Part shown: positions 8,801 to 56,500 of the stretch, piece by piece
Layout: each line of letters starts with the position of its first letter
Numbering within the stretch: the stretch's first letter is position 1
NCBI GenBank assembly: GCA_030390025.1
Contig: CM059432.1
Location: 28,832,001 to 28,896,000, forward strand
Length of the DNA: 64,000 bases
Reading direction: 5' to 3'
DNA from: Squalus acanthias
Lineage: Eukaryota
Notes under the pieces: model-generated
The model's input: only the letters and a program-made list of their open reading frames with translations
Told to the model about the DNA's origin: nothing
The model's database searches: none
Translations under genes and position numbers: made by a program

Positions 8801-8858
8801 ATGGCGGAGCAGGCTCGAGGGGCCGTATGGCCTACCCCTGCTCTTATTTCTTATGTTC
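5843..8858 (+). mobile_element. CR1 LINE, near-complete but disrupted ORF2 (APE endonuclease and RT) with 3' tail
   Basis: Endonuclease motifs (YLNARS, AITETWL, GDF...LDLVL) at 6000-6600; RT motifs (KSPGPDGLHP, QHGFMKGKSCLTN, KFADDTK); tail ttcttatgttctt at ~8848-8860. Confidence 0.92.
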
Positions 8859-10335: not shown

Positions 10336-11740
10336 GAAATGTTTGACAAATTTGCTGGAGTTCTTTGAGGAAGTAACACACAGGGTGGATAAAGGGGAAC
10401 CAGTGGAGGTGGTGTATTTAGACTTCCAAAAGGCATTTGACAAGGTGCCACACAAAAGATTATTGCTTAAGATAAAAAATCACGGGATTGGGGGTAATAC
10501 TCTGGCATGGATAGAGGATTGGCTATCTAACAGAAGGCAGAGAGTTGGGATAAATGGTTCATTCTCAGACTGGCAATCAGTAACTAGTGGCGTTCCGCAG
10601 GGGTCAGTGCTAGGTCCCCAACTCTTTACAATCTATATTAACGATTTGGAGGAGAGGACCGAGTGTAACATATCAAAGTTTGCAGATGATACTAAGATGG
10701 GAGGGAAAGTAGTGAGTGAGGAGGACATAAAAAATCTGCAAGGGGACATAGACAGGCTAAGTAAGTGGGCAGAGATTTGGCAGATGGAATACAATACTGG
10801 AAAGTGTGAGGTTATGCACTTTGGCAGGAAAAATAGTAGAGCAAGTTATTATCTAAATGGCAAGAAACTGGAAAGTACTGAAGTACAAAGGGATCTGGGG
10901 GTCCTGGTGCACAAAACTCAAAAGGTTAGTATGCAGGTGCAGCAAGTGATCAAGAAGGCCAATGGAATGTTGGCTTTCATTGCTAAGGGGATAGAATATA
11001 AAAATAGGGAGGTATTGCTTCAATTGTACAAGGTATTGGTGAGACCACACCTGGAATACTGCATACAGTTTTGGTGTCCATACTTAAGAAAAGACATATT
11101 TGCTCTCGAGGCAGTACAAAGAAGGTTCACTCGGTTAATCCCGGGGATGAGGGGATGGACATATGAGGAGAGGTTGGGTAGATTGGGACTCTACTCATTG
11201 GAGTTCAGAAGAATGAGGGGCGATCTTATTGAAACATATAGGATTGTGAAGGGGTTGGATCGGGTGGATGCGGGGAGGATGTTCCCGATGATGGGTGAAA
11301 CTAGAACTAGGGGGCATAGTCTTAGAATAAGGGGCTGCTCTTTCAAAACTGAGATGAGAAGGAACTACTTCACTCAGAGGGTGGTAGGTCCATGGAATAT
11401 GCTGCCCCAAAAAGCTGTAGAAGCTACATCATTACATAAATTTAAAACAGAAATAGACAGTTTCCTAGAAGTAAAGGGAATTAAGGGTTACGGGGAGCGG
11501 GCAGGAATTTGGACGAGTCTAGGTTCGGATCGGTCATGGCCCTGTGGGTAGCGTAGCGGGCCCAGGGGCCGTGTAGCCTGATCCTGCTCCTATTTCGTGT
11601 CCCCAATTCTGTTAGGTTCAGGAGATGGTTCTGTGATAGTAGATTGGCGGTTAGGATCAGATATGATCTTATTGAATGGCGGAGCAGGCTCAAGGGGCCA
11701 ATTGGCCTACTCCTACTCCTATTTCTTATGTTCTTATGTT
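10336..11740 (+). mobile_element. Young 5'-truncated CR1 LINE with an uninterrupted 402-aa RT ORF and an extended 3' UTR
   Basis: ORF 10343-11551 (YLDFQKAFDKVPH, GVPQGSVLGP, FADDTK); (ttcttatg)n tail at ~11723-11740. Confidence 0.93.
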
Positions 11741-32500: not shown

Positions 32501-32556
32501 ACTATTTCCTGATTAATACTTCTTCCAGCAGAGTTGCAACTATTAGGAGGCCTATG
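29546..32556 (-). mobile_element. Young CR1 LINE (endonuclease C-half and RT), 5'-truncated, with a nested SINE
   Basis: ORFs 32005-32469, 30670-31356, 30326-30646 and 29737-30324; tail at 29546-29560. Confidence 0.93.
31455..31795 (-). mobile_element. 5'-truncated HE1-like (V-domain) SINE with a CR1-derived tail
   Basis: V-SINE core (gagtttgcacattctcccc...gggtttcctccgggtgctccggtttcctcccacagtcc) on the minus strand, followed by a CR1-type 3' tail. Confidence 0.8.
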
Positions 32557-32808
32557 TAGAATGCCCTAACATAAATAGTGATGGAAGCAAAATCCAGAAT
32601 ATAGCTTTTGAAAGGGAAGTAGATAAATATTTGAAAATATTTATTTTAAAAAGGATATGGGAAAAGATGTAATTGAATGGATAGCTCAGAGCTGGCAGAC
32701 ACAATGGGGGCAAACAACCTACTTCTGGTGTTGTAATTTATTTGATTTTAAAAACCCCTCTCACTTTTTCTTTTAAAAAACCATACTGCACAAGAATATT
32801 TTCTTTAC

Positions 32809-32858
32809 CTCTTCAGTAAGTTTTCTTTCACTTTCTTTTCTGTAGTGTCATAGCTCTC
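32809..32858 (-). CDS. Exon of host gene (ESYDTTEKKVKENLLK)
   Basis: atttgttacag|G...AG|gtaaag; 50 bp, phase 0 to 2. Confidence 0.8.
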
Positions 32859-33554
32859 CTGTAACAAATAATGAACTATTTTGTTAATATTCTTTAGGGA
32901 TTGAGACATCATAAACCACCACAGGGAAATCAATCGTCCAGACCCAAAATGGCTACCGTATATACTATGTAGTGAAATGTATTTTTTTGCATTACTCTTT
33001 GGTCCTAAATAACCAGACAGCTGATAAATCCCAAGTCTTTCATTAACCTTACCACCTGTCCAGCTTCCTACTTTAAACTCCAACCACTAAAAAGATACTC
33101 TCTAACCTTTCCCTCACTTTGGGTCCAGGAAAAGTCCTTGCTTCAAACAGGCATCATTTCCAGGTTTTCTTCCAATGGCTTACTGGGTAAATGCACCAAA
33201 GCTGTACAAAGTTATAAGGTCTCAGGTATAATCTGCATTGTGTAACGAGTTGGCTGATCTCAGCCACTGAGGCAGCTGGGATGCTATAAATTGCTTCAGC
33301 ATCACTGGAATAGAGGTGTGGATGTCGACAGAGAATCAGGCTTGGCCTTGATACCCTCCATGATAAAACAGCACAAGAAGAATGGCGAAACGGGTAGGGT
33401 ACTGGAGGGTGGGCAGCACCCAGAAAACTGCACACCTGCGGGAAGCAGCACCTTTAGAAAACGAGGGGGGAATATTGGGAAGGTGGGGGGGAAAAAAAAA
33501 GAAAAAAGGCCAGCAAGCATAATTTCTACCACGACTTACCCTTTGCTCAATTTT

Positions 33555-34970
33555 GTCCATGAGACCCACTTCCTGCTCCCTCGACCCTATTCCCACCAAA
33601 CTGCTGACCACCCAACTTCCTTTTCTGGCTCCCATGTTAGCTGACATTGTTAATGGTTCTCTTTCCTCAGGTACAGTCCCCCTCTCCCTCAAATCTGCCG
33701 TCATCACCCCTCTCCTCAGAAAACCAACCCTTGACCCTCCATCCTTGCAAACTACCGCCCCATCTCCAACCTCCCTTTCCTCTACAAAGTCCTTGAACGT
33801 GTTGTCGCCTCCCAAATCCGTGCCCATCTTTCCCGCAATTCCATGTCTGAATCCCTCCAATCAGGTTTCCACCTTTACCACAGCACCAAACGGCTCTCAA
33901 AGTCACAAATGACATCCTTTGTGACTGTGACAAAGGTAAACTATCTCTGCTCGTCCTTCTTGACTTGTCTGCAGCCTTTGACACGGTTGACCACTCCATC
34001 CTTCAACGCCTCTCCACTGTCGTCTAGCTGGGTGGGACTGCACTCGCCTGGTTCCATTCTTATCTATCTAATCGTAGCCAGAGAATTCCCGCTCCCGCAT
34101 TATTACCTCTGGTGTCCCCCAAGGATCTATCCTTGGCCCCCTCCTATTTCTCATCTACATGTTGCCCCTTGGTGACATCATCCGAAAACACAGCATCAGT
34201 TTCCACATGTACGCTGATGACACCCAGCTCTACCTCACTACCACTTCTCTCAACCATTCCACAGTCTCTAAATTGTCAGACTGCTTGTCAGACATCCCGT
34301 TCTGGATGAGCAGAAATTTTCTCCAATTAAATATTGGGAAGGCCGAAGCCATTGCTTTCAGTCCCCGCCACAAACTCTGTTCCCTAGCCACTGACTCCAT
34401 CCCTCTCCCTAACATCTGTCTGAGGCTGAACCACACTGTTCGCAACCTTGGTGTCATATTTGACCCTGAAATGAGCTTCCGACCACATATCCGCAGCATA
34501 ACAAAGACCACCTACTTCCACCTCCGTAACATCGCCTGTCTCCGCTCTTGCCTCAGCTCATCTGCTGCTGAAACCCTTATCCATGCCTTTGTTACCTCTA
34601 GACTTGACTATTCCAATGCACTCCTGGCTGGCCTCCCACATTCTACCCTACGTAAATTTGAGGTCATCCAAAACTTGGCTGCCCGTGTCCTAACTTGCAC
34701 CAAGTTCCATTCACCCATCACCCCTGTGCTCGCTGACCTACATTGGCTCCCGGTTAAGCAGCGCCTCGATTTCAAAATTCTCATGCTGGTTTTCAAATCC
34801 CTCCATGGCCTTGCCCCTCCCTATCTCTGTAATCTCCTCCAGCCCCACAAACACCCCCCCCCCCCCCCCCGAGATATCTGCGCTCTTCTAATTCTGCCCA
34901 TTTGAGCATCCCTGATTGTAATCGCTCAACCTACGTTAAAGGCGCTATATAAATACAAATTGTTGTTGTT
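33555..34970 (+). mobile_element. 5'-truncated L2 LINE (RT)
   Basis: [34 protein letters not shown] and LHWLPVKQR motifs; (ttg)n tail at ~34960-34970; flanked by a 45-bp duplication. Confidence 0.92.
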
Positions 34971-38152: not shown

Positions 38153-39353
38153 TATGATTTTCCAAGTGCCCTGTTACCACGTCCCTAACAACAGATTCTA
38201 GCATTTTTCCTACTACTGATGTCAGGCTAAGTGATCTATAGATCCCTGTTTTCTCTCTTCCCTTCTTTCTTGGAAAGCGGGTTTAGATTTGCTACCTTCC
38301 AATCCACGGGGACGCCTCTAAAATCTAGGGAATTCTGGAAGATCAAAACCAACACCACTATCTCTGTAGTTACTTCTTTTAAAACTCTAGGATGTAGGCC
38401 ATCAGGTCCAGTTTGGCAGTTGAAGTGCAGTCATATGCCATGGAAGCAAGAGATACACCGAGTCTCTCAGAAGCCACCCCAAAATTTCACTTTCTTCCCT
38501 GAATAGGGCTGGGAGGTTAGAATTCCTCATGACAAACCCCTGCATATTTGGCAGTGACATGGTATTTTATATAGCTGGTCATACAGTGGAATCCCTTTCT
38601 ATTGAGGAAATTTAAAGGATCCCCAGTAGGAGTCCACAATGCAATATGGGCAACATCTATTGCCCCTTGAACTTGCGAAACCAGCAAGGAGCAAAACCAG
38701 CAGTGAGAGAACTAAAGAACAGTGAAGCTTCTGCCGTGGAGTCAACACAAAATGGATGAATTCCCTAGGTCTCCTGCTGAATGCTGGCCTGGATGTTGCA
38801 GAAGTCCATGACCAGCAGCATACAAATTGAGCGCTGTACTGGCTTGGACAGCCATTGGCTGGACTGTTGAGGCACTTGATTGTGACTGCAGGTCATTGTG
38901 CCGAACATAGTATAGATTATCGAAGACCTCCTCAGGTGAATTAAAGTGAAGGTACAGTCTCAGGGCCTTATATTATGAGGGGGTTAAAAGCAAGTTGTCC
39001 TCATCTTTGATGTTGCCTCACTCTTCTTTAAACTCAATCAAGATTGCAAAAGGAGGAATCCACATAGGAAACTCGTGCTGCTCCATGGTATGTCGGTGGG
39101 GGTCAAAAATACACTGATAACCAGAGAGCTGGTTTAAGTATCGCTCAAAACAAAAAAAAAGGCAGGCAAACTTGAGGAAAGCAGAGTTCTCCAGGCAGTG
39201 AGCACATCAAAATAGATCACTTCAGCCCGATAGATCTACTCACGAGAATGCTAGCCCTCTCTGCTCATAAGTTACATTGAGTGCAATGGGGGTAGCAATA
39301 ACAGGAACTCTAATGCCCGACGACAACATCTTACTTGCGTAGGTAGGATAGAC

Positions 39354-39594
39354 GTGTACCTGTAGGATTTAGTAAACATTAAGATTCTATAACCATTTTT
39401 ATATAACTATAATGTGAAATTGTATATTAAAAATCTAAAAGCCTGTATAAAATGGCGAATGGCTGAGCGCAAAGCAGGATGGGAAATTATGCCAACCTGA
39501 CTAAAAAAAAACCTGTGTTTTTAATTACTGAAGTAATGGAATGTAGTGCTAAGTCTATGGAGACTGGTGGGGGAACGAGGAATTTGGTAATATT

Positions 39595-39663
<69 letters not shown>

Positions 39664-40241
39664 AGTTGGAGACATCCCTCATTGGTACAGCTATAGGATG
39701 AACTGATTGTTTAGACAACATCTTGAGAAATGGTCTGTGAAAAGTGAACATCTAAAGATAAGGGCACTTTGTTATGCACAGAGAAAGACCTAGTGGGATT
39801 AACAAGGTCATAAGATGTCATAAGATGGCTAACGAGGGAAGCGAGACATTTACCGGGTGTCAGAGGGCTAATTACTGCCATGTAGGCAAAACAAGGGGAA
39901 AAAGGGTATAAAGGTACAGGTTTTGAACACCAAAAGCAGCGCACCATGTAACCAGAGTTTGAGAAGCTTCAGTCAACAGAACACAGCAAGAACCCAGAGA
40001 AGCGAGCTTCAGTCAACAGAACACACCAAGACACATCAGGAGACTGCGCCACAGTCACTTGGAAGGAACGCCGGGGTTTGAATGAACAGACTGTGACTAT
40101 CTTCTTGTTAAGTATTACTTCTTTGAACTGGATGTTTAATGCTTAATAAACCTGTCTTACTTATGCACAATATACCTGTACCCAGAGTATAGTGTTTGTG
40201 TAGTCACGGACAAATTATTGTAAGAGCTTTTGAAAGCTACA
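39354..40241 (+). repeat. 5' LTR
   Basis: Direct repeat of 49461-50310; ends in ...CTACA; TATAAA at 39907-39912, AATAAA at 40145-40150; (GA)n expansion at ~39600-39658. Confidence 0.95.
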
Positions 40242-40244
40242 AAT

Positions 40245-40262
40245 TGGCGCCCAACGTGGGGC
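40245..40262 (+). promoter_or_regulatory. Primer binding site, tRNA-Lys1,2
   Basis: TGGCGCCCAACGTGGGGC, 3 nt after the LTR end; this is the known Lys1,2 PBS (foamy viruses, MPMV, visna). Confidence 0.95.
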
Positions 40263-40389
40263 TCAACTATTAACTGAAACCAGGTCTATTGCGCATAAGG
40301 CAGGTGCTTGGATTTTCGTCTGATCAACGAAGGTCCTTGTGGAAGGTTAGGTTATCAAACAGATAGTGTCTCTTTCACGTACAGTAAGA

Positions 40390-42274
40390 ATGTTGAGTGA
40401 GAATTTTTTTTATAGACTTTAAAAAGTGAAATTAATGAAGAAGTATGAGGATGCACAGTTGCAGACGTTAATAGTAGAATGTCTAACAAAGGATGTGAAA
40501 GTATCTTTCGAGGACGTTGTTGCGTTCATTGAAAAACAAGTTAAGGAGAAGAGATGGAAGCCGGATAGGGCAGAGCAGCTAATGGCTTATGCGGCAGTGT
40601 ATTGTGTAGAACAAGATAAATAAACCTTCCTAGAGATGGAAGATGATCAGGATAAATGAGAAAAAGACAAACTACAAGAGAATCGAACGTTAATGGGCGA
40701 GAAGTCAAAATGGGAGAAAGAAGCTGTAGAGTTAAAAAATAAAGAATGAAGTTCTTCAGGGACTGGTCGGTGCTTCAACAACAATAATGTAGCAACAGAG
40801 TATTAACACAGTTCACGCCGGCGCTGCAATGCAGAATCTTGGAGGCTAAAAGCCAAGTAGCCTTTTTAACAAAAGACCATGACCGTCTGATCAGCCAATG
40901 AAATGATTCACGAGGAGCCCCAAGAAAGGCTCTTCAGCGCCCCCACAGGGAGTTAGACCACCGGCAATGCCAGAATACTATACAACAATTAGAGAAACAG
41001 TTGGGTAAACAACGGGCTGTAATAGCAGCAGTCACGGGAATAGACCCCCCCCGGGAGTTACGATCAACAATGCGAGGGGTTAAGCGGAGAGCTATGTTCT
41101 CCTTTGATATCCCCTTCCCGAGATGCCCCCGTCTCGTATGCCACCATCGACTTGGCTGAGAGGCCCCAGCCTATGCTAATAACAATATCATAAAAACCTC
41201 AGTGGACGAGCCTGCACCTGTTAAAGCCCCGGTTAATGTTCTGACCCGCACCCAGGTGATTCCCAACGCGCCACCAGCACCAGCAGCTGAGGGTGAAGGG
41301 GCACAAGCAGTACCACCAGCGGCAGGCCCCCCGGGAATGCTGTGGGCAGGCACTTATGAACGGTCCCAGCCCCTGAATTATGCAGAACTACAAGCATGCG
41401 TCCAACAATTCGGACCAGTTAACCCACGAACATGCCCTATAGAGCTAAGGCAACGTATAGTGGCATTCCGGAATTACCACCCTAATTTTGAGAACAGTGA
41501 CATGAAAAATGTTATACTGTCTGCCTTGACTCCGGACCAGTCTCCCATTCCTGGCCTTTAATGTGGGAAACACCCTGAATAACTTAATCACATACATACA
41601 AACAGCTCTAGGCTTGGATACTATTGATTTGGTCCAGAAATTAAACCAGACCCAACAAGGGCCTCATGAGACCCCTGCTGCATTCGGGGATTGGTTGTAC
41701 ACTGTTTGAGATGATGCAGGCACGCCCCAATGATGATGTCTTAAACAGGAAGAATGAGGCAGCATTTAAGAAAATATACTTAAAGAATATTCAGACCTCA
41801 CTGCGAGCAGCCTTAGGGCACACTGTCAGCCACAACTCGCAATGGACAGACATTTAAAGAGACGCTAATTCTGCATGGGCCTGCGCTAAAACTCAGGTCC
41901 AGGCACCAACAACAGAAACGCCAGTGAATGTAGTTGAGGGACCCCAGGCCTCTCCAGCGTCAAACCCCCGTAGACAACCGTTCATATGTTATAACTGCGG
42001 GAAGATGGGACACTTTGCGAAGGATTGCCGAGGTCCTAGACAAACAAGCTCTGGAGGTGGGAGGAAGAATAATAATTACCCGCGATATGGTCCGTCCCGT
42101 TCACCCCATCCAGTGGATAGTAGGCTAGACGCCATTGACTCACGTATTGAGAGAATGTCATGTATGATGCAGACACTTGCAGGGACCCAGATGTCAGGGT
42201 GCCCTGTGGCCCCAACTATGAACTCGTTATTCCCGCCTCCACCATTGCCACAACAACTCAATGGCCCACAATGA
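40390..42274 (+). pseudogene. gag: ERV gag (disrupted): charged/coiled-coil N-terminus, capsid-like region, single CCHC zinc knuckle
   Basis: ATG at 40390 in frame with ORF 40426; CYNCGKMGHFAKDC in ORF 41924-42274; multiple stops and frameshifts. Confidence 0.85.
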
Positions 42275-45200
42275 CGGGGTCCGGCCCCATCGGCCTGGTC
42301 GGAAGTGGGGTTCAGTCGAGACGGCCATGGTCGAAAGGTGGTCTCAGCTTTGCTGCCTGGGGGCAGACAGCAGACTGTTAATAGACACTGGGTCATCTGC
42401 ATTCCCCAGACGCCAACTTGAAATAGGCAAAAGTAGCTTCGTCATAACAGGAGTCACCGGTGCACAAGCACCAGTATACCCAGGGGAAGAACTTCGTATT
42501 TCCCTTGAGGCCTTCCCTGTAAAAATTACCGATCCATTGTACATAAGAACATAAGAAATAGGAACAGGAGTAGGCCAATCGGCCCCTCGAGCCCGCTCCG
42601 CCATTTAACAAGATCATGGCTGATCCGATCCTCACCTCAAATCTAAAGAACACAAGAAGTAGGAGCAGGACCCGGCCACTCAGCCCCTGGGCCCGCTATG
42701 CCACCCACAGGGCCTCGACCGATCCGAACTCAACCTCATGTCCAATTTCCTGCCCGCTCCCCGTAACCCCTAATTCCCTTTACTTCTAGGAAACTGTCTA
42801 TTTCTGTTTTAAATTTATTTAATGATGTAGCTTCCACAGCTTCCTGGGGCAGCAAATGCCACAGACCTACTACCCTCTGAGTGAAGAAGTTTCTCCTCAT
42901 CTCAGTTTTGAAAGAGCAGCCCCTTATTCTAAGATTATGCCCCCTAGTTCTAGTTTCACCCATCCTTGGGAACATCCTTACCGCATCCACCCGATCAAGC
43001 CCCTTCACAATCTTATATGTTTCAATAAGATCGCCTCTCATTCTTCTGAACTCCAATGAGTAGAGTCCCAATCTACTCAACCTCTCCTCGTATGTCCACC
43101 CTCTCATCCCGGGGATTAACCGAGTGAACCTTCTTTGTACTGCCTCGAGAGCAAGTATGTCTTTTCTTAAGTATGGACACCAAAACTGTATGCAGTATTC
43201 CAGATGCGGTCTCACCAATACCTTATATAACTGCAGCAATACCTCCCTGTTTTTATAATCTATCCCCCTAGCAATAAAAGCCAACATTCCGTTGGCCTTC
43301 TTGATCACCTGCTGCACCTGCATACTAACTTTTTGATTTTCTTGCACTAGGACCCCCAGATCCCTTTGTACTGCAGTACTTTCCAGTTTCTCGCCATTAA
43401 GATAATAACTTGCTCTCTAATTTTTCCTGCCAAAGTGCATAACCTCACATTTTCCAATATCGTATTGCATCTGCCAATTGTGTATGACAAATAGAATGGG
43501 AATACTTGGGCATGATACCCTAAGGGGAATGACAGCCATTATAGATTACAATCAAAACGGTTTATGGATTGAATCTAAACCGGGAGACAGAGTGCAAATT
43601 TCAGATGCCCACTCGGTGTTAGCTATAAAGAAGCCTGAGCAGATTGCGCTGCCGACACATTCCCTGCCTCCTTAGTGGCTAAACATGTAGCAGCCTTTGC
43701 TAAATCTAAACACAACTGCGGGAGAATGGAAGGGGAAACACGAATTAATGGGCCACCCCATCGTGCATGTAAACAATACCCGATTCCCCGGGAAAATATT
43801 CCATATTTGCGAAGAGTCATTGCCTCATTAGAAGAACAAGGAGTACTGCGCAAAGGTTCGTTTACCACTAATTCCCCTGCATGGCCGGTTAGGAAGCCAG
43901 AAGAATCCTGGAGGCTTACTATTGATTACCGAGCCCTAAACGAAGCTTCCCCACGTCAGAGTCCAACTGTTAGTCAAGCCCCTTCGCTATTGACATCCAT
44001 ACCCACCAAGGCCACTGTCTTCTCTACCCTAGACATAGCGAATGGTATTTGGAGTATTCCAGTTGCCCAGGAGGACCAATACAAATTTGCTTTCACGTTT
44101 GAAGGGCAGGGCTACACGTTTACGTGTTTACTGCAAGGGTTTCATAACTCACCATCAATCTTTCATCAATATATGGCACAAGCAGTTAAAGACTTCTCTA
44201 AACCATCAGCCCTTCTACAGTATTTTGACAACCTGTTCCTTGCTACTGAAACAATGGAAGAACACCTATAACTTCTAGATGAGTTGATAGGGTTAGTACA
44301 GAAGGCAGGGCTGAAAATAAATCCAAAAAAGGCTCAGCTGGCAAAAGATGAGGTTACCTTTCTGGGAGTAAAGATTTCAGCGACTGGCCTCAGTCCGGAC
44401 CATCAAAAAGGTAGAAACTATTCAGAGACTTCCACAGCCAGTTTCAAAGACAGCACTGCGATCCTTTTTAGGCTTGGTTGGATATCAGCGAAATTTTATT
44501 CCGAACTTTGCAGACTTGGCTAAACCTTTGTATGATCTTTTAAAGGGCGATGCGGAAGAAGTACAATCCGTATGGGAAGACCACCATACTGCTGCAGTTA
44601 GTGCCTTGAAACAAGCAACGATGCAGGCTACTGCTCTCATTTCCCCAGCCCAGTCAGCCCTTCCATCTTGAAGTAGGCTCCACCCCTACCAGCCTAACTG
44701 CCATTTTAAGTCAGAACCAAGCAATCAGCGAGACACTACGCCCCATCGCGTATGCCTCACGTATCTTATGAGGGGTAGAAAGCACATTCTCAGCGTGTGA
44801 GCGCCACCTGTTGGCCACATTTTGGGCAGTCAATCATTTTACTTACATCACCGGACTACAGAAAGTGATTTTGCATTCACCACACACGCCCTTTAATCTG
44901 CTGCTAAAACCAAGTGAGACTAAGGTGTCCTCTCAGCGAATCAGTAAATGGACACTTGAATTGTTACAGCGAGACCTGGACATTACTCCTAAACGAACTA
45001 CACTGTTACCCCTTATGCTCGTCTATGAGGGAAACCCACACCAGTGTCCATTACCAGTACTAGATATGGAACCAAACCCGGTAAAGGCTACTGCTATACC
45101 TGGAGCTCGAAATGTGTATGTAGACGGATCATCATACTATGTAGACGGCCATCCTAGAACTGGATGTGCCCTCATTGATATGGACGCTCCCGATTGGTCA

Positions 45201-46873
45201 GTGGGATTCCAGGTTCCCGCCCAACAAGCAGAACCAATTGCTGTAATTCTCGCTGCACACTACACGACTACGGATGAAACTAATATCTGGTCCAACAGCA
45301 GCTACGTTTTCAATGCAGTCATGGTCCTTCCCCTATATATCATACAAATGAGTTTTGCTCATCAGATTGTAAATCTTTATTACATTCTGGTCTCCTCCGT
45401 AAGCTATGGAAAGTGCTCCAGGAGCGAGTCGCCCCTTGTCATGTGGGGAAGGTAGCAGCCCATCAGAAAGATTCATCCCCCCACTCCCGAGGTAACCAAG
45501 CAGCCGATCGCCTTGCTAAAGAGGCTGCCGACAACGGCAATCCATTACCTTGGTGGGTGATGAATGACACTCAGACACCCGTAGTGGGAGCGGTTACCAA
45601 AGTCAAAACCATTGATCTTTTGGCCCTACAGGATTCACACGCTCCCTATGCGCAAGTAATAGCCTGGCATGAACAAGGACGCCCACTACCAGCACCCACC
45701 CCATGGGCAGACTCAACTGAAGTACAACATAGTGCAGTTAAAAACCCTCCCCTGCTCATGGTCAGGAATAAAGAGGGAGACTTAGTAGTTTGTATTCCTC
45801 CCCAATTGAAGAAATTCTGGCCCTCTTCCATTCTTACCTGACAGCGGGACATTACTCAGCAGCCACTACACTACAAAAGTTATTACCTGTTTACTGGTGG
45901 CCTGAAATGGAGCAGCATGTGGAGCAATATGTTAATCGCTGCCTGCCATGCCTATAAACCCTCCTTCATGTTCTAATCGCGCCTTACTTAGGTCGCAGCC
46001 CCCTCCCGAGGGACCATGGACACACCTACAGATTGACTTTATTGGTCCGCTAACAAAATCCAAGGGTAACTAGGAGTACGCGCTCGTTGTAATTGATCAG
46101 TTCACGAAATGGATCGAGGCGTTTCCCCAGAAGAAACAATAAAGCGCGCACTGCTGCCCGAATTCTCCTGAGTGAGGTGTTCTGTAGGTGGGGATTACCA
46201 CCACAAGTGGATAGTGATCAGGGTCCACACTTTACGGGGGCAGTTTTCACAACCCTACAAGAAATGTTATAGATAAAACATAAATTTTACATTGCGCACC
46301 ACCCACAATCATCAGGGATTGTGGAGAGGGGAAATCGGACTCTAAAAACAATGCTGCAGAAGCTGTGTACAGAACACCCCACTCAGTGGACTAACATGTT
46401 ACCCTTATGTTTAATGACAATACGTTCTACCCCACACGGGACTACGAGGGTAAGTCCATATGAGGCTATGACTGGGAGACAAATGCGGATACCAGGACAT
46501 GTAACATTGGGGAATAATACACCATTAAAGTTACAACCTTGTAGCCAAAAATGGTTACAAACCTTGATAGATCATATGGACGAGGTGAACAGGCTAGTGG
46601 CCATTAACATAGGCAAATCGCGTGAACAAATCAAGCGATATTATGATTAAAGGGTAAAATTATTTGAGTATGACGTTGGAGACAGAGTAATGTTACAAAA
46701 TTTCTCTCCAAAAAAAAAACAAACACTCATTCGAGGTAAAATGGACAGGCCCTCATACCATAGTAGATAAATTAAATCCAACTGTGTATCTACTGAATGT
46801 TCCATATGGTCCGAAGGGAGAACCTAAACTGAAATGGTTCCATATCAATCAGATGAAAACTGTTAAGAATTAA
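42275..46873 (+). pseudogene. pol: ERV pol (disrupted): protease, RT, tether RNase H, RNase H, integrase
   Basis: Protease LIDTGS and GILGHD; RT NSPAWPVRK..WRLTIDYRALN, QGFHNSP and YFDN (44221-44232); tether RPIAYASR..CERHLLA; RNase H YVDGSS..GNQAADRLAK; integrase GH..WWPEM..CLPC, LQIDFIGPL, SDQGPHF, HPQSSGIVERGNRTLK, and WTGP/KWFHINQMK at the C-terminus. Confidence 0.93.
42541..43477 (-). mobile_element. Young 5'-truncated CR1 inserted in the ERV protease gene
   Basis: ORF 42736-43347; near-identical to 29546-30477; TTGT duplicated at both junctions. Confidence 0.93.
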
Positions 46874-46906
46874 GATGTTACATTCTGGTCTACCCACAGG
46901 TCAAAG

Positions 46907-49373
46907 ATGTGGCTCTGTATACTGATATTGATGATTGGATGTGCAGTGAGCTCTGCGGAGGTAACAAAAGCTTTTGACATTACCATTAACATCTGTACAC
47001 CGGATGAAGGAGGCGAATGCACCCCACTCCCCATCTATGGAACGGAACTTCAAATCGTTGGCGGACATAAACGATCAAAGAACCATAATGGTTCATCTGA
47101 GACATATTGGGGGGGGGGGTGTTCCGGTTTGGATCAGAAACAGTACAAAAGATAATATAACAACATATGTGATGGGTTGTGGTACACTACAAGGAAAGGT
47201 GTATAGTTGGGAAATAAAAGAAGGATATGGTGTATGCATCAGGTGTGGGATAAGGGACAGCAAAGGCTCAAATGTGTGGAAATTCCGGAAGGAAAATAAT
47301 GGAATCTGGGAACAGGTACAAGAATCAAACCAGGGCCCAGTAGCTTCAGAAAGCAAGGAATATATACAATTATGCTGGCCTCGGTGGTGGAAGAAACATA
47401 CCGGCCAGTATTCTTGTATTGGGTCAAATATTATCATGGGCTTTAAAAATCAGGATGATGATTGGCCTCCTATCCCCGAATATGATATAAAGATTACCTC
47501 AGCAGGAAATTATATTCCCGGAGATGATATAAAGATCACCTCGGCAGAGAATAAACCCTTTGACAACCTTTAAATGTTGGGGAAATTATAGGGATCCCGA
47601 GAATAAAGATAGCAGCATAGTAGAATTCAAAAATGCGTTAACTGGATGTGTAAGGGAAGATGGGTATTTCTATAGTGTTGGGCTCACACCCTATGAGAAA
47701 ACAAACCATTCAGAACCCCAAGAGGGAGTACTCGAGAAACAATGTCCCCATTTAAAACCGGGACCTGGGAATGGTCTTGTAATTATCCCTACCTATAAAG
47801 TAGTGTATCATCAAGTAATCCTGGAAGTGGCCAGTTATGCTCAATTTAACAGAACTAATACTACCAACGTGGTGCCCTGACAAAACAGCACAATTAACTC
47901 AAAGAATGCTGCAGCAGGTTTTTAGCCAATACTGGGAAAAGGCGACTTTGTCGACAAGCATAGAGAAAACAGAAGGGGCTTTCCGCCATGAGCTTAGTAC
48001 CACTCAAGAGGACAGCCAGGGAAAGAGTAGGCGGAGAAGAGGATTGATAAATGATGGGCTCACAGGTTTCAACACAGTATCATCAGTAATTAACTCAATG
48101 GACTCTGCAGATTTACAGAAACAATTACAAACAGTAAGGGAAAAATTGAAGGAGATACTCAGTAAGGAAAATAACATAGTAAGTGAGGAGCTAAGGGAAG
48201 ATCAGGTAATGACCATACACCTGCGGGATATCATACACGAGATAGAGGATCATGCCAAAAGAATTAATGATCTGATTAGAGAAAACAGAAATGCCTTGGA
48301 TCAAGAAGCCCATAATGACGTATGCGTTATGTACGGGAATTGGCTGATTGAACAAACTAGGGAAAACCTTCAGAGCATCAATAAGGGACTTCTCCCCACT
48401 TGGGTCACTAACATCTGTCAGGGCTGTCCAGTTATTACGATGAAAAATTATGTAAGATCAGGAGTTTAATTAGGATCCACCCTGTCAAACACAATGCCAC
48501 GAGGTAGGGAGTCAAAGGTTGATGGGATTAATACTGCAAATTCCTAGTCTAATGAATCAAACCAGGCCCAACCCCCTATTTAGAATAGAAAATATAGGAG
48601 TAGTAAAAGGAAATACTATTAACCGATTTCTCATGGCACCACAATGGTTAGTACAGCTAGAAAAACTAACATGGATTGAACCAAACCTACAAGGATGCAG
48701 TACAAATGAGGATGCCCTGGTTTGCCCATACAGTTTATACGACCATTCAAAAGGACACCTGTGGATATGGTTGGAATAAAGAAAGGTTAAACTGTACTAT
48801 GGAAGTGACAGGCCCCTCAGATGTAAGGACTAGAACAGCCTATGTACGAGAAGGAAAGTATTGTTTTACCACCTTAGAAAACTCTTAGTCACGGAACACT
48901 TGAATGTTCAATAACCCCAGGGACCTACTGTATTACCCCTACAAAGACTATGGTAGTAGGAGGAAGAATTCTCCTCGCAATAGCCTCACATGGCCAACAG
49001 GTACTACAAGTGGAAGATGATTTAAAAATAAATCTAGAAGATTATGTCACTAAATTCGGATATGATATCCCTGAGCTACCTGAAGCATTAACCGAACTAA
49101 TAAATCAAGTGAGTACCTCCCAACGCCATTATTATACACTGGTGCAGGGGAATAAAGCCATAGCCGAGGAGATTCCAGATATCGAGGTCCGGACACACTG
49201 GTGGGAAATATGGAAATATGGAAATCCCTCCTTGGATTAGAATAATTTCCCCTGTACTGGTCATAGCCCAACTCATAGTACTTACATGCTTACTACTATA
49301 CACCTGCTACCTGAAACACCTAATGCACGAAACCCAATCGCGTTTAAATATGATTACAGCCCAGAACATTTAA
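46907..49373 (+). pseudogene. env: ERV env (disrupted): signal peptide, Ig-like module, furin site, heptad-repeat and Cys-rich F-type ectodomain, TM
   Basis: Splice acceptor cccacag|G at 46899; signal peptide MWLCILILMIGCAVSS; RRRR furin site at 48029-48040; TM IISPVLVIAQLIVLTCLLLY at ~49240-49300. Confidence 0.85.
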
Positions 49374-49460
49374 GAGTTACATAAACGTGGGAAGACAAAC
49401 CCATATGTAAGATTTTAGTTTTGAGGGGTCGGCAAATGCCTCGCCCTCAAGGTAGGGATC

Positions 49461-50310
49461 TGTAGTGTACCTGTAGGATTTAGTAAACATTAAGATTCTA
49501 TAACCATTTTATATAACTATAATATGTGAAATTGTAGATTAAAAACCTTAAAGCCTGTAAAAAATAGTGAATGGCTGAGAGAAAAGCAGGATGGGAAATT
49601 ATGCCAACCTGACTAAAAAAAAGTGTTTTTAATTACTGAAGTAATGGAATGTAGTGCTAAGTCTATGGAGACTGGTGGAGATGAGGAATTTGGTAATATT
49701 ATGCTTAGAGATAAGAACCAGAGAGAGAGACAGGAATTGGAGACATCCCTCATTGGTACAGCTATAGGATGGACAGACTGTTTAGACAACATCTTGAGAA
49801 ATGGTCTGTGAAAAGTGAACATCTAAAGATAAGGGCACTTTGTTATGCACAGAGAAAGACCTAGTGGGTTTAACAAGGTCATAAGATGTCATAAGATGGC
49901 TAACGAGGGAAACGAGACATTTACCAGGTGTCAGAGGGTTAATTACTGCCATGTAGGCAAAACGAGAGGAAAAAGGGTATAAAGATACAGGTTTTGAACA
50001 CCGATTGTAGCACACCACGTAACCAGAGTTTGAGAAGCTTCAGTCAACAGAACACAGCAAGAACCCAGAGAAGCGAGCTTGAGTCAACAGAACATAGCAA
50101 GACACAGCAGGAGACTTGCGCCACAGTCACTCGGAAGGAACGCCGGGGTTTGAACGAACAGACTGTGACTATCTTCTTGTTAAGTATTACTTCTTTGTAC
50201 TGGATGTTTAATGCTTAATAAACCTGTCTTACTTATACACAATATACCTGTACCCAGAGTATAGTGTTTGTGTAGTCACGGACAAATTATAAGAGCTTTT
50301 GAAAGCTACA
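49461..50310 (+). repeat. 3' LTR
   Basis: TGTAG...CTACA termini (5-bp inverted repeat); preceded by the purine-rich aaggtaggga (PPT); AATAAA at 50217-50222. Confidence 0.95.
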
Positions 50311-50589
50311 CGTGTGCATGCTATGAAGGACATACCTACACAATATTCCACATTGTCGGCTAGATGCCAATGTCCTAGCCGAACTGAAATAGCTCGTTTT
50401 GATGTGCAGGTCTTCAGCACACCAGTCTGGAGATTGTCAGCACCCACACCCTTCAACTGTTTCCACTCCACTCCAGCCACATCTTAAAGTCATGTGGGGT
50501 GAACAGCATAAACTAGACACTGGCATCTATGATGGAGGAGACCTCGGGAGCAGTATGAGCAAGATCATCCACTGGCACTTAGCTAAAGA

Positions 50590-53500
50590 TTGTGGCGAAT
50601 GGTGGTGGACAATTAAACAACTAATGGGCTCCCTGAATATTCCCATCCTCAATGATGGTGGAGCCCAGCACATGAATGCAAAAGACAAGGCTGAAGCGTT
50701 TGCACCCATCTTCAGCCAGAAGTGCTGAATGGATGATCCATATCGGCCTCCACCAAAGGTCCCACCATCACAGAAGCCGGTCTTCAGCCAATTCTATTCA
50801 CTCCACGGCTGAGCACACTGGATACAGCAAAGGCTCTAACAACATCCCGGCTGTTGTGCTCCAGAACTAGCCGCACCTCTAGCCAAGCTATTGAAGTACA
50901 GCTACAACACTGGCATCTACCCGACAATGTGGAAAACTGCCCAGGTTATGTCCTGTCCAGTCCACAAAAAGCAGGACAAATCCAATTAGGCCAATTACCA
51001 CCCCATTAGTCTACTCTCAATCATCAGCAGAGATGGAAGGTGTCATCGACAGCGCTATCAAGCTGCACATACTCACCGATGCTCAGTTTGGGTTCTGCCA
51101 CGACCACTCAACACCAGACCTCATTACAGCCTTGGGTCCAAACATGGACAAATGAGCTGAATTCCAGAGGTGAGGTTAGAGTGACTGCCCTTGACATCAA
51201 GGAAGCATTTGACCAGGCAGTGACTATCTCCAACAAGCGAGAGTCTAACCACCGCCCCTTGACATTCAACGGCATTACCATTACCGAATGCCCCACCAAC
51301 ATCCACATCCTGGGGGTCACCATTGACCAGAAACTTAACTGGACCAGCCACATAAATAATGTGGCAACAACAGCAGGTCAGAGGCTAGGTATTCTGCGGC
51401 GAGCGTCTCACCTCCCGACTCCCCAAAGCCTTTTCGCCATCTACAAGGCACAAGTAAGGAGTGTGATGGAATACTCTCCACTTGCCTGGATAAGTGCAGC
51501 GCCAACAACACTCAAGAAGCTCAACACCATCCAGGACAAAGCAGCCCACTTGATTGGCGCCCCATCTACCACCTTAAACATTCACTCCCTTGACTACCGG
51601 CATAACGTGGCTGCAATGTGTACCATCTACAAGATGCACTACAGCAACTCGCCAAGGCTTCTTCGGCAGCACCTCCCAAACCCGCGACCTCTTCCACCTA
51701 GAAGGACAAGGGCAGCAGGCGCATGGGAACACCACCACCTCCAAGTCACACACCATCCTGACTTAGAAGTGTATAGCCGATCCTTCGTCGTCGCTGGGTC
51801 AAAATCCTGGAACTCCCTACCTAATAGCACTGGGGGAGTACCTTCACCACACAGACTGCAGCGGTTCACCAATGTTCACTTTGGGTTCCACCAGGACCAC
51901 TCTGCTCCAGACCTCATTACAGCCTTTGTTCAAACATGGACAAAAGAGCGGAATTCTAGATGTGAGGTGGGCGAGACTGCCCTTGACATCAAGGCAGCAT
52001 TTGACTAAGTGTTGCATGAAGGAGCCCTAGTAAAATTGAAGTCATTGGAAATCAGGGGGAAAACTCTCCACTGGCTGGAGTCATACCTAGCACAAAGGAA
52101 GATGGTTTTGGTCGTTGGGGAGGCATCTCAGCCCCAGACATCGCTGCAGGAGTTCAGGGCAGTGTCCTAACCCAATCATCTTCAGCTGCTTCTTCAATGA
52201 CCTTCCCTCCATCATAAGGTCAGAAGTGGATGATCCAATCTGGTGATGATGATTGCAGTGCTCAGTTCCATTCGCAACTCCTCACATAATGAAGCAGTCT
52301 GTGCCCGCATGCAGCAAGACCTGGACGACATCCAGGCTTGGGGTGATAAGTGGCAAGTAACATTCATGCCACACAAGTGCCAGGCAATGACCATCTCCAA
52401 GAAGAGGAAGTCTAAACAAACCAGCGGATGTAGTATATTTGGATTTCCAAAAGGCATTCAATAAGGTGCCACACAGAAGGTTGCTGCACAAGATAAGGGC
52501 TTATGGGGGTAATATATTAGCATAGAGGATTGGTTAATGGACAGAAAACAGTAGGGATAAACGGGTCATTTTCCGGTTAGCAGGCTGTAACTAGTGGGGT
52601 GTCACAAGGATCAGTGCTTGGGCTGCAGCTATTAAAATCTATATGAAGGGACCGAGTGTAATGTACCCAAGTTTGCTGATGATACAAAGCTAGGTGGGAA
52701 AGTAAGCTGCAAGAGGACACAAAGAGCCTGCAAAGGGATATCGGCAGGTTAAATGAGTGGGCAAGAAGTTGGCAGATGGAGTATAATGTGGGGAAATGTG
52801 AGGCTATTCACTTTGGTAGGAAGAATAGAAAAAAATATTTTTTTAAATGTTGAGAAACTATTAAATGTTGGTGGTCAGAGAGATTTAGGTGTTCTCGTAC
52901 AGGAAACAAAGTTAGCATGCAGGTACAGCAAGCAATTAGGAAGGCAAATGGCATGTTGGCCTTTATTGCAAGGGGGTTAGAGCACAAGAGTAACAAAGTC
53001 TTAACTACAATTGTACAGGGCTTTGGTGAGTCCACACCTGGATTACTGTGCAGTTTGGTCTCCTTATCTGAGAAAGGACATGCATGCCTTAGAGTCAGTG
53101 CCACAGAAGTTCACCAGATTGACTGATGTGATGTCCTGTGAGGAGAGATTGAGTAGATTGGGCCTGTACTCTTGAGTTGAGAAGAATGAGAGGTGATTTC
53201 ATTGAAACAAGTTTCTGAGGGGAATTGACAGGGTAGATGCGGAGAGGTTGTTTCCCCTGGCTGGAGAGTCTAGAACTAGGGGGCACAGTCTCAGGATAAG
53301 GGGTCGGCCATTTCTGACTGAAATGAGAAGGAATTTCTTCACTCAGAGGGTTGTGAATCTTTGGAATTGTCTACCCCAAAGGGCTGTGGATGCTGAGTCG
53401 TTGAGTATATTCAAGGCGGAGATAAATAGATAAAATAAATCTTCAGCCAGAAGCACAGATTGGACGATCCTTATCGGCCTCCTCCTGAGGTCCCCACGTT

Positions 53501-56500
53501 CACAAAAGCCAGTCTTCAGCCAATTCGATTCACTCCACGTGATATCAAGAAACGGCTGAGCACACTGGACACAGCAAAGGCTATGGGCCCCGACAACATC
53601 CTGGCTGTCGTGCTGAAGACTTGTGCTCCAGAACTAGCTGCACCTCTAGCCAAGCTGTTCCAGTACAGCTACAACACTGGCATCTATCCGACAATGTGGA
53701 AAACTGCCCAGGTATGTCCTGTCCACAAAACAGAACAAATCCAATCCAGCCAAAGTACTGCCCCATCAGTCTACTCTCAATCATCAGCAAAGTGATGGAA
53801 GCGGTCATCGACAGTGCTATCTAGCGGCACTTACTCACCAATAACCTGCTCACCGATGCCCAGTTTGGGTTCCGCCAAAAACACGCGGCTCCCGACCTCA
53901 TTACAGCCTTTGTCCAAACATGGATAAAGGAGCTGACTTCCAGAGGTGAGGTGAGAGTGACTGCCCTTGACATCAAGGCAGCATTTGACCGAGTGTGGCA
54001 TCAAGGAGCCCTAGTAAAACTGAAATCAATGGGAATCGCGGGGGGGGGGGGGGGGGGGGGGGGGAGACTCTCCACTGGCTGGAGTCGTACCCAGCACAAA
54101 GGAAGATGGTTGTGGTGGTTGAAGGTCAATCATCACAGCCACAGGACATTGATGCAGGAGTTCCTCAGGGCAGTCCTCGGCCCAACCATCTTCAGCTGCT
54201 TCATCAATGACCTTCCCTCCAACATAAGGTCAGAAATGGGGATGTTCAATGATGACTGCACAGTGTTTAGTGCCATTCACAACTCCTCAGATAATGAAGC
54301 AATCCATGCCCACATGCAACAAGATCTGGATGACGTTCAGGCTTGGGCTGATAAGTGGCAGGTAACATTCGCGCCACACAATTGCCAGGCAATGACTATC
54401 TCCAACAAGCGAGAGTCTAACCACCGCCCCTTGACATTCAACGGCATTACCATCGCTGAATCCCCCACCATCAACATCCTGGGGGGTCACCATTGACCAG
54501 AAACTTAACTGGACCAGCCACAAATAATGTGGCAACAAGAGCAGGTCAGAGGCTAGGTATTCTGCGGCGAGTGTCTCACCTCCTGACTCCCCAAAGCCTT
54601 TCCACCATCTACAAGGCACAAGTAAGGAGTGTGATGGAATACTCTCCACTTGCCTGGATGAGTGCAGTTCCAACAACACAACAAGCTCGACACCATCCAG
54701 GACAAAGCAGCCCGCTTGATTGGCACCCCATCCACCACCTTAAACATTCACTCCCTCCACCACCGGCGTACCGTGGCTGCAGTGTGTACCATCTACAAGA
54801 TGTACTGCAGCAACTTGCCATGGCTTCTTCGGCAGCACCTCCTAACCCACGAACTCTTCCACCTAGAAGGACTATGGCAGTAAGCGCATGGGAACACCAC
54901 CACCTCCAAGTTCCCCTCCAAGTCACACACCATCCTGACTTAGAAGTACATCGCCGATCCTTCATCGTCACTGGGTCAAAATCCAGGAACTCCCTACCCA
55001 ACAGCACTATGGCAGTACCTTCACCACACAGACTGCAGCAGTTCAAGAAGGCGACTCACCACCACCTTCTCAAGGGCAATTAGGGATGGCCAATAACACA
55101 CACATCCTGTGAATTAATAAAAAATGGCAGAGCCCTCCACAACTGCAAAAGACAAGGCTGAAGCGTTCACAACCATCTTCAGCCAGAAGTGCCAAGTGGT
55201 TGATCTTGCTCAGCCTTCTCCCGAGGTTCCCATCATCACAGATGCCAGTCTTCAGCAAATTTCATTAATACCACTTGACATCAAGAAACAGCTGAGTGCA
55301 CTGGACACAGCAAAGGCTAAAGCCCCCAACAACACCAGGCTTTAGTTCTGAGGGCCTGTGGTCCAAAACTAGCCAAACCTGTAGCTATGCTGTTTCAATA
55401 CAGCTACAATACCCAATTATGAGGAAAATTGCTCAGGTATGATCTGCCCACAAAAAGCATGACAAATCCAGCCTGACCAAATAACACTATTACCCTACTC
55501 CCAATCAGCAAAGTGATGGAAGGAGTTGTCAACAGTGCTACCAGTGGCACTAACTCTCTAATGCTGAGTTTGGATTCTGTCAGGATTACTTGGCACCAGC
55601 CGTCATTTACAGCCTTGATCCAAACATGGACACAAGAACCAGATTTTGAAGAGGGGGTGGATACAGTGCACGTGAGCCCTGAAGTGGGCGACAAATTCAT
55701 GTACGATCTTAACGGTCAAGCCTCATTACAATAACTTTCCTTGCTGATCCGCCCAAACCCTGCCAGATTCAATACTTGGCCAGCAGGTGGGAGCAGGAAT
55801 TCGGCGGCTGGAGCCCACAGTCAGGGGCCCAGGTAAGCGGACGCGAATGAGGGCAGAGGGTGTTGGGGGGGGGGGGGGGGGGGGGGGGGGGAAACCCATG
55901 GCAATTGAGGCCCAAGGAATTCCTGGCCCACAAGGAAACCTAAAATTACATTTAATTGCCTAACTACCTGGGTCACTTCTGGCCATGATCCACCTCCTCG
56001 CAGGTCTAGCTTGACAGGGAAATAGTCACTGGTTCCCCGCTCAGGCCTTCTGACTAATATTATAGTCATCGGGACTCGATCTGCATTTTAAAGAAGGACC
56101 CCACTTCCTTCCTGCGGATGTCCCGCTCGCCTGCTCAAAAAAGCATGTTAACATCGAGACATGATGGGAAAGCAGCGGGATCAGAAGGGGCAAGTGATTG
56201 CCCTCATTTTAACTGCCTCAGGCCCGGTTTCTGCCAGGCAGGGAAGGTTAAAATCGGGGCCCCAAGCGAGAGTCTGTCAAGGCAGCATTCGACCGAGTGC
56301 AGCACCAAGTAGTCTTGGTAACATTGATCAATGGGGAACTCTCTCCAGTGGATGAACTCCACAAAAGCAGATGGTTTTGGCTATTGGAGGCCAATCATCT
56401 GTCAAGACATCACTGCAGAAGCTCCTCAGGACAGCGTCCCGAGCCTAACTATTTTCAGCTGCTCATCTTGGACCTTCCATCCATAAGGTCAGAAGTAGGG

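Follow-up and report, generated by a model that had tools for sequence, protein, structure and literature searches.

We analysed a window of 64,000 nt from Squalus acanthias (assembly GCA_030390025.1, contig CM059432.1, forward strand, 28,832,001–28,896,000), which carries a provirus at window positions 39342–50310. A first-pass annotation had read this element as a complete lokiretrovirus-like provirus in an apparent shark genome. In our reading, to which we give a probability of about 80%, it is a dead, old provirus of a canonical retrovirus lineage of sharks, rays and frogs, has an envelope glycoprotein (Env) of the F type, and belongs neither to the lokiretroviruses nor to the true foamy viruses. 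The features by which a canonical provirus is recognised are present: long terminal repeats (LTRs) of the form TG...CA (the first base of the 5′ LTR is a G), a short target duplication, a primer binding site (PBS), gag-pro-pol-env and a purine tract. As a single locus this is an ordinary dead endogenous retrovirus (ERV), and the family to which it belongs is the more useful subject.

Fold of the envelope glycoprotein

In the window, env extends from 46907 to 49373 on the plus strand, with a signal peptide from the methionine at 46907 and the stop codon at 49371–49373, and is interrupted by eight frame changes and two stops. A surface subunit of about 370 aa is followed by a fusion subunit of about 440 aa, in which a long helical stretch and a Cys-rich domain precede the membrane anchor (49242–49310). 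The furin site with a long heptad and Cys-rich ectodomain behind it, as described in the first-pass annotation, was found again; the site reads SRRRRG and lies at 48026–48043. The order furin site, long helix, beta-rich Cys domain, second helix and anchor is shared with class Ib fusion proteins.

The fold was predicted for an unaltered 555-aa sub-range of a natural open frame of a relative, whose Env is 89% identical to the window env over the fusion-subunit stretch. With 40 alignment rows the model reached a pLDDT (predicted local distance difference test) of 69 and a pTM (predicted template modelling score) of 0.53, while an earlier model from eight closely related rows (pLDDT 31.7) was unusable. 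Foldseek against the PDB returned 230 matches at E ≤ 0.001, led by the F protein of hPIV3 (E 6.3e-10, about 500 columns); 8rm0, a foamy-virus Env in its prefusion form, ranked 28th (E 9.6e-8). In VIA-align all 50 entries listed were paramyxovirus or pneumovirus F proteins or this foamy Env (Z 9.1–11.7, 286–397 residues); 8rm0 had a Z of 10.0 and a root mean square deviation of 6.4 over 304 residues, and the rows were effectively tied. Comparison with the predicted viral structures in BFVD gave 45 matches at E ≤ 0.001. The best of these were an unnamed entry, lispivirus and arlivirus glycoproteins, baculovirus F and paramyxovirus F, and retroviral Envs were also matched, namely those of WEHV-1 (1.4e-9), WDSV (2.3e-7) and feline foamy virus (6.9e-6). 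Neighbours of the model in the ESM Atlas were Gypsy-env, Baculo_F and Fusion_gly clusters. The claim of an F-like envelope holds because the model of the relative's Env matches paramyxovirus and pneumovirus F proteins as well as foamy Env, and the proposed similarity to the F proteins of Mononegavirales is thus borne out at the level of the fold by Foldseek, VIA-align and BFVD. On the basis of this model, the envelope of the family is predicted to be an F-type (class Ib) fusogen.

With class Ib fusion proteins the family Env shares the core fold and priming by furin, but it differs from them in showing no sequence match to PF00523 or PF03408. PF00523 gave no match at E ≤ 10 in eight pieces of the window env or in four natural Env open reading frames (ORFs) of the family, and PF03408 gave none in these four ORFs. 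The eight window pieces matched no Pfam family at all, even at E ≤ 10. With PF00523, the genome as a whole gave 0 matches under a strict filter that silenced the controls too, so this result carries no information. A search of the Env profile against PDB sequences found nothing meaningful (best E 0.11), and none of 4193 candidates from a word-indexed search of proteins matched the Env fusion subunit. The comparison with the Env of a foamy-like ERV family of the same genome was borderline (hhalign probability 51.5%, E 1.5e-4). As a side observation, weak Ig_3 matches (E 0.21–0.46) occur in the surface subunit, at 46965–47573 of the window and in relatives, and the UniRef name of a bamboo-shark homologue of this Env is 'Ig-like domain-containing protein'.

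A structural link between foamy Env and F proteins is already described in the available part of PMC11468914. According to the same part of that paper, foamy Env carries a large receptor-binding insert before the cleavage site, while F proteins are without it; in this respect the family Env is like foamy Env. Because foamy, WEHV-1 and WDSV Envs all match the model, an F-like Env is not diagnostic of lokiretroviruses, and its value as a lokiretrovirus marker is weakened. Published examples of an F-type envelope are those of lokiretroviruses and foamy viruses; the family would add a canonical retrovirus whose Gag has a zinc knuckle, whose gag-pol junction is of the readthrough kind and whose RNase H is of the gamma type. 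This bears on the question whether retroviruses captured envelopes repeatedly or inherited one F-type fusogen.

Placement among retroviruses and competing readings

For the reverse transcriptase (RT) and tether we calculated a tree of 39 rows and 534 columns, rooted on seven Gypsy rows, in which the window was read with X at its in-frame stop. The rows comprised the window, natural frames of the genome, database Pols, a Gag_p30-bearing bat gamma-like Pol, MLVIN_C-bearing epsilon-like Pols, two foamy-like Pols of the same genome, and P0100 for SnRV. P0100 is a protein of a Logan contig of 8695 nt, in which the RT stretch of SnRV shown in the supplement of the lokiretrovirus paper recurs without a difference; we therefore took it as the Pol of SnRV or of a near-identical virus and used it as the SnRV reference. 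The retroviral clade had support of 100/100, apart from the Gypsy rows, and the window, four shark relatives and a Pol of Xenopus tropicalis together formed a clade within it that was also supported at 100/100. A clade of 17 rows (99/98) that leaves out the window clade brought SnRV together with the foamy-like pair and with Pols of gamma/epsilon-like type. The other nodes of the backbone were open, as was the backbone of an earlier quick RT tree of 44 rows.

Scores for the individual domains point in different directions. The nearest labelled reference for the RT was SnRV (44%, 218 bits), followed by foamy-like (158 bits) and gamma (137 bits) sequences. RNase H was nearest to gamma/epsilon-like sequences (65 and 62 bits; foamy-like 21), and the integrase to epsilon-like and Gypsy sequences (157 and 155 bits; SnRV 110, foamy-like 88). 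Among PDB entries, the RNase H of the relative L037 matched XMRV/MLV with 48 bits (E 1e-11) and PFV with 21 bits (E 2e-3). The natural protease-RT-RNase H (PR-RT-RH) of the family scored 213 bits with simian foamy virus (SFV) and 200 bits with XMRV/MLV, which is a tie, and 148 bits with Ty3. For the RT core, foamy PR-RT was the top-scoring PDB entry (E 3.3e-29), and for a relative's integrase it was PFV integrase (115 bits).

SnRV, a canonical retrovirus of fish, thus has the nearest named RT, and it shares the QGFH.SP and LLQYVDD boxes with the family. It differs in several respects: the identity over PR-RT-RH is 32%, its RNase H (45 bits) and integrase are not the nearest, it falls into the other major clade of the tree, and it has accessory ORFs where the window has a gap of 87 nt between env and the LTR.

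A clade of shark and frog 'foamy-like' elements, CmiFLERV/XtrFLERV, has been published, and in the available part of that report only pol was detected (PMC5512871, Aiewsakun & Katzourakis 2017). Shark ERVs were also treated by Han 2015 (PMC4422223), and those of Song et al. 2023 had no Gag or Env domains (PMC10699275). CmiFLERV/XtrFLERV and the window's family are alike in that cartilaginous fishes have an anuran nested among them, and both are defined on RT or Pol; they differ in that the published elements are known from pol only, while the window's family was read with a CCHC gag, a readthrough junction and an F-type env. As the pattern of shark and frog hosts matches the published clade, the lineage of the window is probably the CmiFLERV/XtrFLERV group. 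Our analysis would then add gag and env annotation to a shark and frog lineage that has so far been described from pol (PMC10699275 and the available part of PMC5512871).

Several points weigh against the reading of the provirus as a member of this canonical, F-type lineage. The Env model is that of a relative, is of medium confidence and is monomeric, so the fold of the window's own protein is a prediction by proxy. The identity with CmiFLERV/XtrFLERV follows from the host pattern only, since the supplements of PMC5512871 contain no sequences. The tree holds no lokiretrovirus, class II, ERV-L, CmiFLERV or XtrFLERV sequences, and the exclusion of lokiretroviruses would accordingly be carried by motifs, RNase H type, Env and a published screen. 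The position outside the 17-row clade is unusually deep and also fits an undescribed basal lineage, and an approximately unbiased (AU) test did not reject a union of the window clade with the foamy pair (p 0.09). The flanks of the window provirus, CGTA and CGTG, match at only three of four bases. Finally, we infer readthrough at the gag stop from the layout, and the predicted fold of the 92 nt after this stop gives no support, being no better than that of shuffled sequences (z −0.16; pseudoknots are outside the model).

The basal position leads to an alternative that we consider rather improbable, namely that the elements from sharks and frogs, and perhaps from coelacanth and turtles, are an undescribed deep-branching canonical lineage that split off before the RTs of SnRV, foamy, gamma- and epsilonretroviruses, in which case the label 'foamy-like' would be a misnomer. 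The exclusion of the window clade from the 17 rows at 99/98 would be expected from such a split. The mosaic of domains (RT nearest SnRV, RNase H gamma/epsilon-like, integrase epsilon-like/Gypsy) and the Env without a Pfam family agree with it, and so does the state of the published surveys, which report only pol in shark and frog FLERVs (available part of PMC5512871) or no Gag/Env domains (PMC10699275). The tree behind this argument, however, has a thin and unnamed taxon sampling, with neither class II, ERV-L and lokiretrovirus rows nor an exogenous foamy virus, and its long foamy branch measures 1.78. The nodes of the backbone are open, significance is not reached in the AU test, and CmiFLERV and XtrFLERV lie within the 'Foamy' group in the tree of Wang & Han (PMC7947760). 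A related proposal, that the ERVs of sharks and frogs (perhaps also of coelacanth and turtle) represent a deep canonical lineage that already had an F-type envelope with a receptor-binding insert, is in our view doubtful. If it were true, the F-type class Ib fusogen would be the ancestral retroviral envelope and not a peculiarity of lokiretroviruses or a one-off capture, because lokiretroviruses, foamy viruses and walleye epsilonretroviruses share the fold.

That the provirus is a chondrichthyan lokiretrovirus, or belongs to the closest sister group of lokiretroviruses, we judge to be very unlikely. Lokiretroviruses are defined by an RT that is sister to those of all canonical retroviruses, an RNase H that groups with foamy viruses, an integrase that groups with CGIN1 and an Env with sequence similarity to PF00523 (PMC7947760). 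In the same study none of six chondrichthyan genomes screened had lokiretroviruses, and CmiFLERV and XtrFLERV were placed in the 'Foamy' group, apart from Loki-Xtr (PMC7947760). The family of the window resembles lokiretroviruses in the order LTR-gag-pol-env, in having tether and RNase H, in a furin-cleaved Env with an F-like fold, and in a PBS 18-mer that recurs in one lokiretrovirus consensus. The depth of its RT+tether clade, outside SnRV, foamy and gamma/epsilon-like sequences, could also be taken in this direction, as could the hosts of the relatives (frogs, coelacanth, turtle), which overlap with lokiretrovirus hosts. The nearest database Pols are moreover annotated 'NYNRIN-like', a name that we take to denote the same gene as CGIN1, with which the lokiretrovirus integrase groups.

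On the other side stands the RT box, for which we used CPFG(Y)SNSP, drawn from the supplement of the lokiretrovirus paper, as a proxy criterion. The box of the window's family is L(P/L)QGFHNSP (LLQGFHNSP in the window). The text of the supplement has 77 occurrences of CPFG and 38 of FGYSNSP, and 0 of QGFHNSP, PQGFHN and NSPAWP. Identities of the window's RT and integrase with the rows shown in this supplement, counted by eye, came out alike for lokiretroviruses, SnRV and foamy viruses outside the RT core and were given no weight. RNase H is of the gamma type and not of the foamy/lokiretrovirus type, and the search for PF00523 was negative, as described above. In the published Loki-Xtr consensus gag and pol are fused, and the Env, about 580 aa in length, has a short N-terminal subunit and a hydrophobic fusion peptide, which sets it apart from the Xenopus relative of the window's Env; the family has a large surface subunit, and its gag is closed by a stop codon. 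X. tropicalis harbours both Loki-Xtr and a separate relative of the window's family, and one of the six genomes in which the published screen found no lokiretroviruses, that of Chiloscyllium punctatum, carries the Env family of the window. The test for a dual RNase H (tether PF17917 plus PF00075) was positive in the family, but tether and RNase H are common to all retroviruses (PMC7947760); the first-pass annotation had rightly seen two RNase H-like domains, which are nevertheless not a lokiretrovirus mark. Judged by the motifs, the type of RNase H, the sequence and architecture of Env and the screen of Wang & Han, neither the membership in lokiretroviruses that had been proposed nor a special kinship with them is supported.

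That the element is an endogenous member of Spumaretrovirinae, a foamy virus proper, is hardly credible. Some scores would suit it: the RT core and the relative's integrase have foamy proteins as their best PDB matches, the Env profile is weakly matched by the foamy-like Env of the same genome, and the AU test leaves a union with the foamy pair standing. The PBS is of the kind given for most foamy viruses in the available part of PMC5512871. Over the whole PR-RT-RH, however, SFV and MLV-type proteins tie, RNase H is much closer to MLV-type proteins than to PFV (48 versus 21 bits), and the integrase scores 157 bits with an epsilon-like Pol and 88 bits with the foamy-like family. To our knowledge foamy Gag has no Cys-His knuckle, while a CCHC knuckle is present in the window and in three of three natural gag ORFs. 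A stop of the readthrough type joins gag and pol. Foamy viruses have accessory genes downstream of env; in the window the 87 nt between the env stop and the 3′ LTR are too few to hold tas/bet-like genes.

A bona fide foamy-like ERV family exists in the same genome (loci L031–L036 and L046, with open frames up to 1153 aa) and gives 139 RT matches at E ≤ 1e-40. It is likewise multi-copy, and its Env is of the same broad fold class. Its Env matches PF03408 (11 matches, best E 3.2e-22), unlike the Env of the window's family. Its Pol scores 476 bits with SFV PR-RT-RH and 267 bits with PFV integrase, against 213 and 115 bits for the lineage of the window, and the type of RNase H differs. Membership in Gypsy/Metaviridae was rejected, as the window clade is separated from the seven Gypsy rows at 100/100 and has PF00075, so that the RT does not fall within this group, a placement that the first-pass annotation had named as one that would speak against it.

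Structure, damage and age of the provirus

Comparison of the window with itself revealed two direct repeats of about 850–900 bp, about 10.1 kb apart, with blocks that are 87–98% identical. All features of the provirus named here lie on the plus strand unless stated otherwise. The 5′ LTR (900 bp) extends from 39342 to 40241, starts with GGTAGGATAGACGTGTACC (TGTAGG... in the family) and ends with AAGCTACA. The 3′ LTR (850 bp, 49461–50310) reads TGTAG|TGTACC...AAGCTACA and is without the 8 nt that follow TGTAG in the family. For the family ends we fetched and compared 24 genomic places matching the 3′ end of the LTR. In 17 other LTR copies TGTAGGATAG(G/A)GG is kept upstream of TGTACC, whatever lies further out; they include one 5′ LTR with a PBS behind it and three 3′ LTRs with internal sequence ahead. 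The LTR of the family is therefore TGTAGG...AAGCTACA, and the 5′ LTR of the window starts at 39342 and not at 39354. The two LTRs of the form TGTAG..CTACA in the first-pass annotation are thus both present, with family ends as it wrote them, but the start it gave has to be moved. A (GA)n microsatellite in the 5′ LTR, at about 39600–39658, is about 35 nt longer than its counterpart in the 3′ LTR.

The probable target-site duplication consists of CGTA in the 5′ flank (39338–39341) and CGTG at 50311–50314. Around solo-type LTRs of the family, flanks read by eye showed perfect 4-bp duplications in 9 of 13 cases. A probable polypurine tract, AAGGTAGGG, lies at 49449–49457 directly before the 3′ LTR, and the same sequence precedes the LTR in three other copies that have internal sequence upstream (L051, L059 and L068). 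The PBS, TGGCGCCCAACGTGGGGC, comprises 18 nt (40245–40262) and begins 3 nt downstream of the 5′ LTR. The first-pass annotation had named it Lys1,2; the site is there, and tRNA-Lys1,2 is presumably the right label. It does not discriminate between the groups considered, because the same 18-mer is present in one consensus of the lokiretrovirus supplement and a tRNA-Lys PBS is given for foamy-type viruses, fish FLERVs included, in the available part of PMC5512871.

The two LTRs differ at 43 of 842 aligned sites (39355–40241 versus 49466–50310), which corresponds to a Kimura two-parameter distance of 0.053. At yearly rates of 2.2e-9 to 2.2e-10 substitutions per site this would translate into about 12–120 million years; the lower rate is an assumption used for the elephant shark (PMC4422223).

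Damage was mapped by projecting natural open frames of relatives onto the window. The gag gene runs from the ATG at 40435 to the TGA at 42272–42274 and is spread over three frames; it contains several stops and at least two changes of frame. The single CCHC knuckle expected from the first-pass annotation was recovered at 41987–42028 (PF00098, E 5.1e-8), and zf-CCHC was found in all three natural gag ORFs of the family mentioned above. In five of five relatives read, as in the window, gag ends with NGPQ-TGA, and the protease frame continues directly behind. An in-frame gag-TGA-pro layout is the readthrough type of gamma- and epsilonretroviruses.

Pro-pol is broken into at least eight frame pieces (at least seven frame changes) with stops. 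It starts in the gag frame right behind the TGA (42275–42544), with LIDTGSS at 42378–42398 after one frame change; in the relative L037 an RVP match had an E of 0.0089. The protease is then interrupted by 934 bp (42545–43478, minus strand) from the 3′ part of a long interspersed nuclear element (LINE), a non-LTR element. Homology of the provirus to four relatives ends at 42544/5 and resumes at 43478–43481, at adjoining positions in each relative. Within the insertion, the ORF 42736–43416 (minus strand) shows 83% identity over 126 aa with the C-terminal end of a LINE ORF from another part of the genome, which bears RVT_1, and we take the insertion to be CR1-like.

The end of the protease and the RT follow at 43479–44656, with NSPAWPVRK at 43870–43896, QGFHNSP at 44134–44154 and YFDN in place of the YxDD box at 44218–44238; one in-frame stop (44269–44271) and two frame changes were found here. 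These motifs had been described as spumavirus-like. They are present as stated but not specific to spumaviruses, since close variants occur in the SnRV row of the lokiretrovirus supplement. The tether, a degenerate RNase H (PF17917), and RNase H itself (PF00075, about 45111–45530) were assigned by Pfam within 44643–45625. The integrase (45772–46873, at least four frame pieces) shows HHCC at 45841–45951 and the D,D,E motifs at 46029–46049, 46207–46233 and 46309–46335, with a C-terminal SH3-like part downstream of them. With Integrase_H2C2 after tether and RNase H, the integrase is indeed last in pol. In total, Pfam families were detected in 6 of 24 translated pieces (zf-CCHC, RVT_1 twice, RT_RNaseH with RNase_H, RNase_H, and Integrase_H2C2). 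The provirus can thus be called complete in its layout, but every gene is broken by frame changes and stops, and the protease by the LINE as well.

Such a fossil provirus would be a germ-line copy of a retrovirus that once infected cartilaginous fish. To judge from the layout, the live virus would have primed reverse transcription from a host tRNA at the PBS, packaged its RNA with a Gag bearing one zinc knuckle, and made Gag-Pro-Pol by readthrough of the single in-frame TGA. It may have integrated with a 4-bp target duplication and entered cells by means of a furin-cleaved class Ib F-type glycoprotein, of which the enlarged surface subunit would be the receptor-binding part. The later history would comprise an old insertion, then the insertion of the LINE, and frameshifts and stops in all genes.

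Copies, hosts and surroundings

In the 3.7-Gb assembly, 48 of the 150 RT matches scored, the window included, are at least 81% identical and represent its family, which thus has at least 47 copies besides the window provirus. More than 100 further RT matches among the 150 are 54–79% identical, and solo LTRs of the family are many. An env fusion-subunit piece used as query recovered the window's family and a second family that is about 51% identical in the fusion subunit (loci L023–L025 and L028). This sister family looks much younger, since for 32 of the 56 matches listed the open frame measures 800 aa or more; between the end of the integrase and env, its copies have about 300 aa that are acidic and rich in proline. 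At G000:C8:127439797-127451459 (loci L012–L015), four env fragments of the window's family are arranged head to tail with a spacing of about 3.7 kb, each with an open frame of 362–379 aa. This looks like a tandem amplification of a piece of a provirus.

Outside this genome, a profile of natural Env frames matched 61 proteins among 1.84 billion representatives. Of 18 matches that were looked up 15 were named, 10 from six elasmobranch species (one skate, and five sharks that belong to different orders) and five from anurans (four genera). The Env homologue P0019 is from the bamboo shark C. punctatum. As for the host, which the first-pass annotation had taken for a shark, the names of the Env relatives, like every other indication, agree on a cartilaginous fish. 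Four public gene models (P0018, P0021, P0025 and P0042) join Env fragments to parts that resemble host proteins (Niban-like, C2H2 zinc finger, cadherin and F-box), and are either annotation chimeras or exonised ERV pieces. Pols of neighbouring lineages come from coelacanth, three further frog genera and a sea turtle (P0097, P0103, P0114, P0117, P0146, P0094–P0096 and P0101); they are 37–53% identical to the shark Pol L039, and their NCBI name is mostly 'NYNRIN-like'.

Beyond the provirus, the window contains much debris of non-LTR retrotransposons (7021–11551, 30670–34905 and 51010–55083). RVT_1 was found in 5 of 11 other long frames tested and an endonuclease domain in one. At 51073–52000 there is a pair of repeats about 790 bp apart.

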